From the IMG/VR virus record IMGVR_UViG_2737471817_000013: a stretch of 5,410 nt of DNA; one strand, given 5' to 3'. The DNA comes from a virus. Taxonomy: Duplodnaviria > Heunggongvirae > Uroviricota > Caudoviricetes. A program made the position numbers and the translations under genes. A model generated the notes under the pieces. The model was not told where the DNA came from. It searched no databases and saw only the letters and a program-made list of their open reading frames with translations. Shown in pieces: positions 1 through 5,410 of the stretch (the first letter of the stretch is position 1; the number at the start of each line of letters is the position of its first letter).

Positions 1-1818
1 TTAATTTTTACTATCGTCATTAGTGACCGATACACATGATGGCATCCAGTCTTCTGATTCCTCCGTCAGTGTCACGTTTGAACGAAAACCGTGCTTCGTT
101 TTCCGTTTCATATACTCCCTGCCATATTCCGCCATTGCCCCCGGCATATCTTTACCGAAGCGCGTCAGTGTTACAGGTTTACCAAACCCATGTGCCCTCA
201 TATAAGCCAGATAGGCATGATAGAGATACCTACGTGGGCTGAATGGCACAATTTCAGCATTACCCACTAACAGGCCATCACACATTACCGACGCCATGAG
301 ATAGCCGCAGAAGTCCACCAGCGAATCCCCCTCTCGCTTTATCGCCAGTGCTTCTTCAGATTTCTGCTGCTCATATAACAGGCGTCTGGCTTCGTCCTGG
401 TCAGCAAACCGTGTAAGCAGATGGCGAATCACTACCGCCAGCTCACCTTCTATTTTTTCCGCCAGCATGGGGTCGCGCTCGTTCTCCGGTACAACCTCCG
501 AAAAATTGAATATCACCCGACGACGTGAGATCCCCCCGCTGCGGTCACTGAATGACATGGCGTTATTGTTCACCGCCAGCACGACCGCCTGAATGCGTGT
601 TGAGTAGGGGGCTTTATGCTTCGGGTCGATTGCCACCTTGTCACCGCCTGTAATGGCCTTAATTCCTGCGCCATCACCAGCGTAGCGGGTCATATCCGGC
701 ATGATAATCAGCGAAAAGCCAACCACTAACGCGCGTTCCCTTGCATCTTCCAGCGCCTTCATGCTTGCCGATACTGTGTTGGCCTTACCTGCCAGCATGG
801 TGCAAATCTCCGCCATCACGCTTTTACCACTTCCCCCTGGACCTGTTACCTCAATGAATAACTGCCAGTCGTACCGGTTCGCCAGCACCATGAATAATGC
901 AGCCAGCACGCGATCCGCCTTGCGGTCATTCTCAGCCACCGAACGGCGTAACCACTTCCAGAAATTCGGCGCATGTGTTGCCAGCGTTTCCCCCTCTGCT
1001 GGTGGGCTGAAAGGTAATTCACTGGCAATTAACAACCAGTCGTTTTTGTTATGCTCCCGAAAATTACCTGTTCTGGTATCAAATACCCCGTTACTGAATC
1101 CAATCAGGTTACGGGCTGTATTCCCCATTACAGGCAAACTTAACTTCATGGTATCGACCGCCGATTTAATGGCGTTCTGCGAATAGCTGATCTCCGCATC
1201 AATGAAAATCTGTGCCATAGCTCGCTGTAATTCTTTATCCTGAATCGGCTCCCATACAACGCCGTTGTAATGGTGAACAGTGTCAGAGTCAGCATGAATC
1301 GCCAGTTCACCGCCATAATGTGCCAGGAGAACTTCGCCGCGTTGACTTGCTCCCATCTGGTTAAGCGCCAGTGATGAAGCGTTACCGTCTTTTACCCGCT
1401 CTTTTTTCTTTACAGGCAGTTCAACTACCTTTTTCTTTTCCGCCTGCTCTGCCCGTTCACGTTCCAGATATTCGCGCCAGTTCTCCCGTTTCTGGCTGTG
1501 CATTCCTTCAGGGTAATAATCAGCATCCCTGACACCTGCCACTGCCAGTTTCTGCCCGATGGTATTAACAAGCCCCGGACGCAATAACCCCGCCTGATAG
1601 AGACGCACGCGATAGCGTCCGTCCGGTACGATTTGCAGGTTGTCCAGTTCGGCAAGTTGTTGCTCTCCAAGCCAGACAGGAGGCACGTTATCGCCAGCCA
1701 GTCGCCCGTCCTGTTCCTGCCACTGATTCGCATGTGCCCACGCATCACTACCCGCAAAAATGATGACTTCCGTCATTTTGTCACGCGGCTGGTGTTTTAA
1801 ATTTGGCGCTTTTTTCAT
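1..1818 (-). CDS. P4 alpha-like replication protein (primase/helicase: D5_N-like region followed by P4-family primase C-terminal P-loop ATPase domain)
   Basis: 605-codon ORF ending in TAA at 3..1. ATG at 1818..1816 overlaps the TGA of the upstream ORF (ATGA coupling) and is preceded by GGAGAGAG about 8 nt upstream; the ORF-track start at 1833 is a GTG five codons further up. Walker A GPGGSGKS is encoded at 820..843. Downstream motifs (KAITGGDKVAIDPKHKAP, VNNNAMSFSD, RRRVIFNF) and the upstream NGVFDTRTG block match what I remember of the D5_N / P4-primase C-terminal family. A K/E-rich charged linker is encoded at about 1384..1479. Confidence 0.9.
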   Translation of the reverse strand: MKKAPNLKHQPRDKMTEVIIFAGSDAWAHANQWQEQDGRLAGDNVPPVWLGEQQLAELDNLQIVPDGRYRVRLYQAGLLRPGLVNTIGQKLAVAGVRDADYYPEGMHSQKRENWREYLERERAEQAEKKKVVELPVKKKERVKDGNASSLALNQMGASQRGEVLLAHYGGELAIHADSDTVHHYNGVVWEPIQDKELQRAMAQIFIDAEISYSQNAIKSAVDTMKLSLPVMGNTARNLIGFSNGVFDTRTGNFREHNKNDWLLIASELPFSPPAEGETLATHAPNFWKWLRRSVAENDRKADRVLAALFMVLANRYDWQLFIEVTGPGGSGKSVMAEICTMLAGKANTVSASMKALEDARERALVVGFSLIIMPDMTRYAGDGAGIKAITGGDKVAIDPKHKAPYSTRIQAVVLAVNNNAMSFSDRSGGISRRRVIFNFSEVVPENERDPMLAEKIEGELAVVIRHLLTRFADQDEARRLLYEQQKSEEALAIKREGDSLVDFCGYLMASVMCDGLLVGNAEIVPFSPRRYLYHAYLAYMRAHGFGKPVTLTRFGKDMPGAMAEYGREYMKRKTKHGFRSNVTLTEESEDWMPSCVSVTNDDSKN

Positions 1819-2114
1819 TTCTGCTCTCTCCACGCGGCAATCATGTTTTTCAGTTCCTGTAGTTTTTTATCAACATCCATACATGACACATGGTTATTTC
1901 TGGAAAGCGGGATTTCCCGCCGGAATCTGCAAATAAAGATCTCCACGTTCAGCGAACTATGAAATGAATAGCCATCACGAATAAAATAAACACGGTCAAA
2001 CATCAGTTCTTTTACCGTTACTCTGTTACCGTTCTTATCCAGATAAATAGCGCCGGGGATAATTTTGGGGTGTGCATAACCGCTGGCAGTCAAGCCAGAT
2101 AAATATGTTCTCAT
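1815..2114 (-). CDS. Hypothetical small protein (99 aa), translationally coupled to the primase gene
   Basis: ATG at 2114..2112 with GGGGAT about 9 nt upstream. Its TGA stop overlaps the primase ATG. It starts 6 nt after the stop of the preceding ORF. I recognise no family. Confidence 0.6.
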   Translation of the reverse strand: MRTYLSGLTASGYAHPKIIPGAIYLDKNGNRVTVKELMFDRVYFIRDGYSFHSSLNVEIFICRFRREIPLSRNNHVSCMDVDKKLQELKNMIAAWREQK

Positions 2115-3544: not shown

Positions 3545-3966
3545 CCCACCAGCAAGCCAGCACACTGATCACATTGCCCACCAGCCGCAAATCTGGCATT
3601 GTTGGCAATGTGTTCAAGTGTGTAGCTTTCCCACTGGTGGCCCTCTGCAGTCGCCTTTGTTTTATCCAGAACGAAATCAGACATCAGATTGATCAGCACC
3701 TGGTGACCTGACAAAATCGCATCAGTCACGCCACCAGCAAAATTTTTTGCTTTCCGGACAGCGTGGCCAACGGCATTTTGCAGCGAAATATTCTGCATTT
3801 CTGGCGTGCTGTAGTAACGGTGATCAGTGCCTTCACTCTGTGCGACCACAACGCTATAATCTGCCTCGTAGACAGTAAGCAATATGGCGCAGTAGGCTAT
3901 TCGTTCACAAAGGCGCTCCGGCAACGGGGCGCTTTCTCTTTTTGTAACGGTCAGAGCGTTACACAT
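3545..3966 (-). CDS. Hypothetical protein with a well-supported start but an undeterminable 3' end (no in-frame stop before 2434)
   Basis: ATG at 3966..3964 preceded by GGAGG (plus-strand cctcc at 3976..3980) 9 nt upstream; the start abuts the stop of the upstream gene. The first ~140 codons look protein-like (VTDAILSGHQVLINLMSDFVLDKTKATAEGHQWESYTLEHIANNARF). Beyond about 3545 the translation becomes S/R/C/L-rich and is antisense to plus-strand ORFs. 3545 is a nominal boundary, not an observed stop. Confidence 0.4.
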
Positions 3967-4759
3967 GGCTGTTTTCCTCCATGCGACGGGCTAACCAACG
4001 CTGCGAAAGACGAATTAATTCAGCTTTCCGCTGGTGGTAGCCCTGGCCTAACTCAATCAGCGTGATATTGCTCTGCTCAAGGTAAGAAAGGTGCTCAAGC
4101 TGCAACGTGCTCATGTGGTCGCGTGGTTCGCCTGTGATGCCGTTCGCCTGCGCCCACTGTTTTGCAGTCATGCCACCCAGCACGATACGCGCCAGCATAT
4201 TGGCTTCCGTGGTGTAGTGGTGCTGGAACGTGTTTTTACCCAGTTCAGCCCGGTACGCCTCCAGCGCGGCACACATTGGCTTAAAGTAGCTGGCAACGGT
4301 GATACGGGCTTTCAGTTCCCGGCGTAATGCTGCGGAACGCACTGGCGCTACCTTGTGTAGCTCCTCCTCGCATTTGATAAAGTACTGGCGAACGGCGCGG
4401 CCCTGTTCGGTACGTTCGACCATCGCCAGTTCTTTCGCCATATTCACTGTGATGATGTACTCAAGAGCGGTTTGCTGGCGAGATTTTGCGCTCACCGGAT
4501 CGGGTCGGCTCAAATATTCAACAACCTCATAATCCACGCCTTCCGTGAACCCGTATTCTTCAATGCGCCCCTTGATCCACGAACGGAAAACGCGCCCTAC
4601 ACCTAACGCCTTATGTAACGCTCTGGCGCTAACAATAGTGGTTTCACGCCCACCAATAACGCCGGAAATAACCGGAATAATTTCAGCGAAATTTTGCAGA
4701 TTCTGTTTTTCAGGCCGAACGAAGCCCCGCCCCTGTACAGGCGTATATCCAGTATTCAT
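3959..4759 (-). CDS. Phage regulatory / antirepressor-like protein (Rha or KilA-N/ORF6N-type N-terminal DNA-binding region with ORF6C-like C-terminal region), 266 aa
   Basis: ATG at 4759..4757; TAA stop at 3961..3959. The N-terminal segment TIVSARALHKALGVGRVFRSWIKGRIEEYGFTEGVDYEV and the C-terminal segment TEANMLARIVLGGMTAKQWAQANGITGEPRDHMSTLQLEHLSYLEQSNITLIELGQGYHQRKAEL resemble phage Rha/Ant-type regulators as I remember them. The exact Pfam family is not certain. The RBS is weak. Confidence 0.75.
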   Translation of the reverse strand: MNTGYTPVQGRGFVRPEKQNLQNFAEIIPVISGVIGGRETTIVSARALHKALGVGRVFRSWIKGRIEEYGFTEGVDYEVVEYLSRPDPVSAKSRQQTALEYIITVNMAKELAMVERTEQGRAVRQYFIKCEEELHKVAPVRSAALRRELKARITVASYFKPMCAALEAYRAELGKNTFQHHYTTEANMLARIVLGGMTAKQWAQANGITGEPRDHMSTLQLEHLSYLEQSNITLIELGQGYHQRKAELIRLSQRWLARRMEENSHV

Positions 4760-4811: not shown

Positions 4812-5000
4812 TTAGTGAACTGCCTCGCGGCTGTCCTTCCATGCCAGAACTTCGGATAAAGACCAGCCAACGGAACGACCACCGAGTTTACGCCGTGATG
4901 GGAATTGTCCGGCTTTTTCCAGGCGGTAGCGGCATGAACGGCTCAGGCCTGTAAGTTGCTGACATTCTTTTTCACGTATAAAGCGATCTGTGCTTAACAC
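4812..5000 (-). CDS. alpA: AlpA/Vis-family phage transcriptional regulator (excisionase-like winged helix), 62 aa from a GTG start
   Basis: RFIREKECQQLTGLSRSCRYRLEKAGQFPSRRKLGGRSVGWSLSEVLAWK aligns by eye with E. coli AlpA (RILRLPAVIQKTGMARATIYDWL...MLGVKSVGWIEAEIDEWL). GTG at 5000..4998 is preceded by GGGGG (plus 5005..5009) 4 nt upstream. The ORF-track 104-aa version begins at a TTG at 5126, and its extra N-terminus is the translation of a (CCCAA)n repeat. TAA stop at 4814..4812. Confidence 0.8.
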   Translation of the reverse strand: MLSTDRFIREKECQQLTGLSRSCRYRLEKAGQFPSRRKLGGRSVGWSLSEVLAWKDSREAVH

Positions 5001-5043: not shown

Positions 5044-5058
5044 TTGGGTTGGGTTGGG
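5044..5058. repeat. Tandem pentamer repeat (TTGGG)3, with a fourth TTGGG at 5032..5036
   Basis: Direct reading: ATTGGGTGGATTATTGGGTTGGGTTGGGTCGG at 5031..5062. It lies in the leader/promoter region upstream of the alpA GTG start. Confidence 0.6.
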
Positions 5059-5164
5059 TCGGATTGTGTCAGGGTGTTTATGGAATGGCAAACACTGGTG
5101 GCGGTCGTTTTACAGAAGTGGGGCAATGAGAATAAAAACCCTTTTAATTCATTGTGATGCGGTA

Positions 5165-5193
5165 GCGTAAAATTCTGTTTTTACGCCTTTTTT
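5165..5193 (+). terminator. Hairpin plus T-tract on the plus strand (weak, AT-rich stem), terminator-like
   Basis: GCGTAAAA (5165..5172), loop TTCTGT, TTTTACGC (5179..5186), then CTTTTTT (5187..5193). No plus-strand CDS lies upstream of it; it sits opposite the alpA leader. Confidence 0.3.
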
Positions 5194-5286
5194 ACATGTT
5201 TTTAAGAGTGATTCGCCAATGTACAAAAAGCCAGTAAAACGACTGAAAATCAACTTTTTAGGGTGTCGGTCAGATGATAATCAAGT

Positions 5287-5346
5287 TTGTTCCAGATTGT
5301 TCGCCGTTGTTCGTCGTGGTGTCTCGTTGTTTCACGTTGTGTCCGT
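5287..5346. repeat. Iteron-like array: six 10-bp-phased direct repeats (core TTGTTC / TTGT), followed by an AT-rich tract at 5351..5378
   Basis: TTGT (or TGGT) recurs at 5287, 5297, 5307, 5317, 5327 and 5337, exactly 10 bp apart. The units read TTGTTCCAGA, TTGTTCGCCG, TTGTTCGTCG, TGGTGTCTCG, TTGTTTCACG, TTGTGTCCGT. Downstream is GAAAAATCACGAAAAAAATTATATTTC. Confidence 0.6.
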
Positions 5347-5410
5347 TCTGAAAAATCACGAAAAAAATTATATTTCTCTGGCTATTGGCAGTGTGGTTAC
5401 GTTTTCGTGA

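Follow-up and report, generated by a model that had tools for sequence, protein, structure and literature searches.

An array of six head-to-tail 10-bp units with a TTGT(T)C-type core, located on the plus strand at 5287..5346 between the integrase gene and alpA of an Escherichia coli phage-inducible chromosomal island (PICI), is probably an operator for the island's own AlpA protein and would serve the autoregulation of alpA. The window, i.e. the whole stretch of DNA analysed, has a length of 5,410 nucleotides. We infer AlpA as the binder from the anatomy of the array, its recurrence, the fold of AlpA and a published AlpA-responsive reporter taken together.

All recognisable genes of the window lie on the minus strand. 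They encode a 610-aa alpha-like protein with D5_N, DUF5906 and Pox_D5 domains (1833..1), a protein of the AntA/AntB type (4759..3959), several small proteins of kinds usual in E. coli PICIs, and AlpA (4812..5000), a 62-aa winged-helix protein of the Phage_AlpA family (PF05930, E=3e-18) that is the proposed binder of the array. The preliminary description had suspected an integrase just beyond position 5410, and this was borne out: a minus-strand frame whose translation ends in HENVTTLPIAREI occupies 5368..5410, with its stop codon at 5368-5370, and runs on past the window. In a 99.9 % identical E. coli locus the same gene end belongs to an annotated 409-aa tyrosine integrase with Arm-DNA-bind_3 and Phage_integrase domains, encoded at the junction of a capsid-forming PICI that has integrated into yifB/comM. 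The array thus has an intergenic position in the 367-bp gap between integrase gene and alpA, 21 bp beyond the integrase stop codon and about 290 bp upstream of alpA. With many E. coli islands, homology stops at 5252-5255; this is a module junction, at which the integrase gene with the array and alpA with its conserved leader recombine independently.

The units of the array read, in order, TTGTTCCAGA TTGTTCGCCG TTGTTCGTCG TGGTGTCTCG TTGTTTCACG TTGTGTCCGT. A T-T-G-T core had been ascribed to all six units; the register is indeed exact, but TTGT starts only five of them, while unit 4 is one base off with TGGT. Several relatives, among them L010 and L012, have TTGT at unit 4 as well. The threefold occurrence of TGTTC (5288, 5298, 5308) and the single TGTTTCAC (5328) were found as reported earlier. 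Tandem Repeats Finder assigned a period of 10 to the array. In first-order Markov simulations (n=2000) with the base composition of the whole window or of the local region, six phased T[TG]GT never occurred, and three consecutive exact TTGT units appeared in 0.15 % of the whole-window and 2.7 % of the local-composition simulations. Six direct head-to-tail units of exactly 10 bp, one helical turn apart, are the arrangement expected of an operator for a recombination directionality factor (RDF, the excisionase type of protein). The TTGT strand faces the 3' end of the integrase gene and points away from alpA. A coding function of this DNA was considered and rejected, both the preliminary notion that a conserved gene might cover the array and the open frames themselves: the integrase gene ends at 5368 in another frame, and neither the open minus-strand frame nor the 63-aa plus-strand ORF (5219-5410) is conserved, the L003 homologue of the latter ending after 8 codons. 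This ORF is a mere translation of the repeats, as had been supposed.

Conservation was assessed in 69 IMG/VR loci and in four E. coli islands that differ in their integration site. The earlier reservation that the repeats might be lacking in related elements was not substantiated, since 34 distinct versions of the array were present, each with 5-7 units. The TTGT cores stay in register, and drift affects the six bases after each core; when array types were compared in register, their identity was 0.92-1.0 over unit positions 1-4 and 0.30-0.68 over positions 5-10. One locus carried an extra duplicated unit. The A-rich spacer from the array to the integrase stop codon (5347..5367) is conserved too, CTGAAAAA..CGAAAAAAATTAT being kept in all array types; a search for a stable RNA structure gave none. 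On the other side of the array, a sequence resembling the IHF consensus, AATCAACTTTTTA, is located on the plus strand at 5248..5260 as the sole match to WATCARNNNNTTR in the window. It precedes the first TTGT unit by 37-39 bp in 69 of 70 related loci, and across these 70 loci the specified bases are kept and the N4 spacer varies. Between the IHF-like site and the alpA leader follows a strongly conserved block (5205..5247) with near-invariant columns across four integrase types and likewise in the IMG/VR loci; an upstream alpA promoter may be situated inside it. In L082, a relative whose AlpA is 67 % identical, a gene replaces the integrase-alpA intergenic region and there is no array at this place, an absence that was counted against an AlpA operator. 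A perfect 16-bp palindrome, CAGTATGCGCATACTG, was observed between array and integrase stop codon in L003 (7147-7170) and in about 20 IMG/VR loci; this suggests a site for a dimeric protein. The array type of the window lacks the palindrome.

The array is not confined to the integrase-alpA gap. A scan of the complete island L078 together with its flanks (20 kb; at least 3 of 4 phased TTGT) retrieved exactly four phased arrays, with 0.017 expected. The first is positioned 55-90 bp upstream of the integrase start on the attL side, 3 bp from the tandem doublet GGTGTAGTTAAT GGTGTAGTTAAT; the second is at the far island end on the attR side, 13 bp from the same kind of doublet; the third precedes the capsid operon, between a terminator and the major capsid gene; and the fourth, between integrase gene and alpA, is the counterpart of the window array. 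The unit types TTGTTCCACG, TTGTTTCACG and TTGTTCGTGG are common to several arrays. A second complete island, L084, has arrays at attL, at attR and between integrase gene and alpA; a capsid-operon array is absent. The capsid-operon and attL arrays face the downstream gene, unlike the window array. An RDF operator is expected at the att arms, and TTGT arrays were present there 3-13 bp from GGTGTAGTNAAT doublets in the relatives L078 and L084, on which this part of the evidence depends, the att sites of the element itself being located outside the window.

Tandem 12-bp doublets adjoin TTGT arrays on both att arms (L078 895-918 and 16204-16227; L163 about 14370; L080 about 4480). Their motif depends on the island: GGTGTAGTNAAT in L078, TGTGTGGTCAGT x2 in L163 and TGGTCCAAAnT x2 in L080. 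The doublets, the GGTGTAGT doublet included, are presumed from their sequence to be integrase arm-type sites; the annotated arm repeats of P4 are tandem 12-mers on both sides of the core as well. Their presence weighs on the alternative that the TTGT repeats are themselves bound by the N-terminal arm-binding domain of the integrase, whether as arm-type sites or for integrase autoregulation. The Arm-DNA-bind_3 domain of the integrase, the location of two of the four arrays at attL and attR, and the segregation of the array with the integrase module at the junction near 5252-5255 are in line with this alternative. The separate doubled 12-bp motif (GGTGTAGTNAAT x2), with its layout like the P4 arms, is however the better candidate for integrase binding and is absent beside the window array; moreover, the doublet varies among islands, whereas TTGTTC/TGTTTC repeats remain next to it where its motif differs (L163, L080). 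A motif following the arm specificity of the integrase should have changed along with it. An array before the capsid operon has no obvious role for an integrase. The preliminary description had also considered arm-type sites near an att site just outside the window, but position 5410 is in the 3' part of the integrase gene, and about 1.4 kb separate the array from the attL core, so that it is not within an att arm. Binding by the integrase is unlikely on these grounds.

L163, the island with a different arm-site doublet, originated from a pattern scan of IMG/VR with TTGTTCN4TTGTTCN4TTGTT, which yielded at least 120 loci; an AlpA homologue was found in 15 among the matches listed, and the pattern is too loose for a collection of this size to judge whether the motif is exclusive to AlpA elements. 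L163 encodes a different AlpA allele, and a three-unit TTGTT array (1455-1484) is situated directly downstream of its alpA, facing the next genes; this suggests that the placement of arrays around alpA differs between lineages. In L078, a capsid-forming PICI, five IHF-like sites were observed on the minus strand at 15009-15854 within about 850 bp of non-coding DNA that extends from the terminase genes to attR; this may be a cos/packaging region.

Phased T-rich repeats may also occur without a dedicated binder, as bent DNA for H-NS, IHF or Fis, or as an RNA-level element in the integrase 3' UTR. With 37-41 % G+C the intergenic region is A/T-rich, a conserved IHF-like site is nearby, and H-NS binds the alpA promoter in Shewanella CP4So. 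The conserved part of the array is, however, a specific TTGT(T)C core rather than A-tracts, and four defined sites of an island share these units. The minus-strand fold was no more stable than that of shuffled sequences (z = 0.43), and a search against Rfam gave no match at E<=1; an RNA element or terminator was rejected with these results. A role at the transcript level is further disfavoured because the orientation of the array differs between sites. Altogether we consider it quite improbable that the array lacks a binder of its own. Three structural features of the region were recorded in addition. A 9-bp stem (5402-5410/5356-5364) with a trailing U5 might weakly terminate integrase transcription, but coding sequence makes up half of it, and L003 retains it in part only. 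A terminator-like plus-strand hairpin with a T-run (GCGTAAAATTCTGTTTTTACGC CTTTTTT; 5165-5196) is antisense to the alpA leader, and L003 and L004 have a hairpin and T-run at this position with a different stem sequence. The putative alpA leader contains TTGGG three times (5044-5059), which is not conserved in L003 or L004.

The preliminary description had favoured a replication function for the array. On this reading it would be an origin or an accessory cis-replication site comparable to ori and crr of P4, and the alpha-like helicase protein (1..1833) would bind it. The TGTTC core is similar to bases 1-5 of the P4 iteron TGTTCACC, the ori of P4 is itself located upstream of the P4 alpA homologue vis, and the window protein shares 51 % identity with residues 323-771 of P4 alpha, which comprise its helicase and ori-binding part. 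The type I iteron had been given correctly, the P4 record annotating 'type 1' repeats in ori and crr. Yet not a single array unit is a full iteron, the best one agreeing in 7/8 positions (TGTTCGCC), and matches to TGTTCACC with up to one mismatch were no more frequent across the window than by chance. The cognate iterons are located elsewhere. In the E. coli islands L003 and L004, which encode a 98 % identical protein, 8 and 9 perfect copies of TGTTCACC/GGTGAACA in both orientations occupy about 220 bp of DNA with 67 % A+T directly 3' of the alpha-like gene (L003/L004 2760-3000). By analogy of sequence, the origin of the present element is presumed to lie just left of window base 1, outside the window. 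Experiments have placed PICI origins immediately 3' of pri-rep, where A/T-rich DNA is enclosed by two sets of iterons (PMC6092414). The array deviates from this layout: it is 3.4 kb away from the pri-rep gene and past alpA, and A/T-rich DNA is present on one side only. As for the window protein, which had been called primase-like, it corresponds to residues 323-771 of P4 alpha only, without the N-terminal primase domain.

Iterons should follow the replicase, and the array does not. An island with a DUF927 replicase has the identical array, one with a RepA-type helicase has a version that deviates by a single base, and D5_N/Pox_D5 proteins accompany the array too. TGTTCACC was found nowhere in the DUF927-replicase or RepA-type islands; the DUF927 island has TTTTGCGGGTTAT iterons of its own. 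The 28-bp A/T-rich tract (5347-5374) that had been read as a DNA-unwinding element does contain 82 % A+T, most of it being the conserved spacer, but with its last seven bases it extends into the integrase gene, these being the stop codon (5368-5370) and the four minus-strand coding bases next to it. The tract, integrase end included, is conserved as such in relatives. Since the cognate iterons are elsewhere, the array holds no full iteron and its presence is independent of the replicase type, an origin at this place has hardly any likelihood left.

Several properties of AlpA fit the operator function. The AlphaFold2 model of the protein (pLDDT 86.8) had its best structural match in the GIsul2 excisionase (8c3t, TM 0.83), followed by RdfS, Pukovnik Xis and TorI, and together with the PF05930 assignment it marks AlpA as a small winged-helix protein of the RDF type encoded by the element. 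The RDFs Xis, Cox, Apl, Gifsy-1 Xis and Pukovnik Xis bind head-to-tail to direct repeats one helical turn apart (PMC7498355, PMC11963761), and Cox, Apl, Vis and RdfS are RDFs that also regulate promoters (PMC7498355, PMC11963761; PMC7286903). Tandem sites for an AlpA/Xis-type regulator had been the first alternative listed in the preliminary description; geometry, recurrence, conserved cores and the excisionase fold of AlpA now favour it. The protein AlpA of Pseudomonas aeruginosa, which has a Q-like fold and binds as one copy to a single GGGACG between -35 and -10 with contact residues 128-142 (PMC9371919), was rejected as a model: it is a different, larger protein with one 6-bp site and has the name alone in common with the 62-aa winged-helix excisionase-like protein and the 60-bp repeat array described here.

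Experimental evidence comes from EcCICFT073, in which provision of AlpA in trans switches on a lacZ reporter of the alpA promoter and leads to excision and replication (PMC6092414). In PICIs AlpA alone is sufficient for excision (PMC6092414), and in the Vibrio PICMI satellites AlpA alone triggers excision as well, an excisionase role having been proposed. The primers of the EcCICFT073 alpA reporter map to window positions 5400 (one mismatch) and 4943 (exact). The AlpA-responsive fragment thus contains the array, and IMG/VR loci with an exact primer match carry the array; as the fragment has 458 bp, the responsive element could also be located elsewhere in it. The reverse primer of the published int-promoter reporter had no match in the fetched loci. 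In the literature searched, a PICI AlpA site mapped by EMSA or footprinting was not found.

Comparisons among AlpA families gave a mixed picture. P4 and CP4-57, with more distant AlpA/Vis proteins, have another phased motif of the TCCG type at an equivalent place beside the arm sites; this may be seen as a parallel in another AlpA clade and was counted for AlpA as the binder. Alleles of AlpA that are only 59 % identical seem to use the same TTGT motif, so that no true covariation of protein and site emerged within PICIs; this was counted against AlpA as the binder. The AlpA protein search yielded 19 relatives, all of them close. A contig scan for covariation with distant AlpA proteins gave three loci; those from Geobacter and an alphaproteobacterial MAG, both distant, had no phased repeats. 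The co-occurrence of array and AlpA is partly built in, because the array islands were found via AlpA or via homology to the locus.

The position of the array relative to the promoter was counted against an AlpA operator. A sigma-70 promoter facing alpA, TTGCCA-17-(TG)CACAAT, was predicted by a consensus scan on the minus strand at 5063..5091, with both hexamers invariant in the alignment; the scan revealed no other consensus promoter for alpA. Measured from this promoter, the array is situated 230-290 bp upstream, with the TTGT strand directed away from alpA. An activator-dependent second promoter in 5205-5247, towards which IHF would bend the array, could reconcile these distances. For an AlpA operator we propose the following mechanism. 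AlpA monomers would line up head-to-tail on successive TTGT(T)C units along one helix face, and a short, bent protein-DNA filament would result. Beside the doubled arm-type sites of the island ends, an array of this type would direct excision. At the integrase-alpA position, the filament would raise alpA transcription, probably with the help of DNA bending at the conserved IHF-like site, 27 bp from the array; that binding at the array activates transcription is what we infer. With alpA expression started by a helper phage, the resulting positive feedback would commit the island to induction.

The signal of the helper phage might enter at the array itself, if a helper DNA-binding protein, e.g. 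of the Xis/Cox type, bound the phased repeats and thereby switched on alpA. P4 has three 10-bp tandem repeats upstream of vis (9176-9205, annotated as ori type 2), which we take to be binding sites of P2 Cox. Expression of alpA from the array-containing fragment is induced by helper prophages independently of SOS (PMC6092414). This entry route is nevertheless doubtful: at attL and attR the motif must function in excision of the island itself, for which AlpA alone suffices, and helpers are diverse with differing RDF specificities. A more speculative extension, to which we give a slim chance, regards the array with the IHF-like site at fixed distance as the decision node of PICI induction, in either of two versions. 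In the first, a helper-phage Xis/Cox-like protein would seed binding on the phased repeats, which AlpA would then occupy. P2 Cox acts at the P4 late promoter, a parallel to such seeding. In the other, the array would drive an AlpA-dependent antisense promoter (candidate -10 TATATT, 5370-5375) that switches the integrase off after excision; this version derives from the TTGT strand pointing into the integrase gene. Either version, if true, would be a mechanism by which helper phages switch on alpA.

The principle of RDF operator arrays is well known. Short direct repeats at helical-turn spacing, as found here, are bound by 186 Apl at attP and pR-pL, by P2 Cox in the Cox boxes, by lambda Xis at X1-X1.5-X2 and by P4 Vis at attP/Pint. 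Like the PICI arrays, these operators are located both at att beside the arm sites and at a promoter region, and the small winged-helix RDF, encoded nearby as AlpA is here, doubles as a transcription regulator (PMC7498355, PMC7286903). The PICI arrays differ in that their binder is a candidate, the proposed effect is activation of its own gene from far upstream rather than repression at an overlapping promoter, and arrays are present on both att arms. A TTGTTC-type motif was not found described; the PICI motif and its three to four sites per island seem to be undescribed in the literature searched. With P4 ori/crr and the PICI ori the array shares repeats containing TGTTC at a spacing of 10-11 bp and an alpha-like protein in the window; in contrast to them it lacks full TGTTCACC iterons and is independent of the replicase. 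TGTTC phased repeats by a P4-alpha-like gene should not be annotated as an origin unless the full iteron has been checked. Helper-embedded PICIs have a doubled attP motif, tgTGTATTGCan x2, on both arms, for which integrase or AlpA was left open as the binder (PMC10111431). The islands studied here likewise have a co-oriented tandem 12-bp doublet on both arms (GGTGTAGTNAAT x2), but the phased TTGT array is a different element, and doublet and array are distinct neighbours.

Islands with this alpA family were present in 887 of 5426 complete E. coli genomes. The circuit of the PICI EcCICFT073 and the cf-PICI EcCIEDL933 has the same gene order int-alpA-...-replicase-ori(-capsid module). Nucleotide identity of alpA in the complete-genome panel ranged from 100 % down to about 88 %, CFT073 and EDL933 themselves not being among the fetched genomes; the alpA of clone D i14, a strain listed with the PICI carriers in the supplement of PMC6092414, is about 96 % identical. 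Gram-negative PICIs, and capsid-forming PICIs too, have AlpA as their master switch, and their excision and transfer require it. In the PICI AlpA circuit, the present arrays would be candidate cis-elements. The TTGTTC-type motif in 10-bp phase at attL, at attR, upstream of alpA and at the capsid-operon promoter offers concrete targets for experiments. If AlpA binds this motif, its roles in excision and in transcription would be tied to one recognition element.
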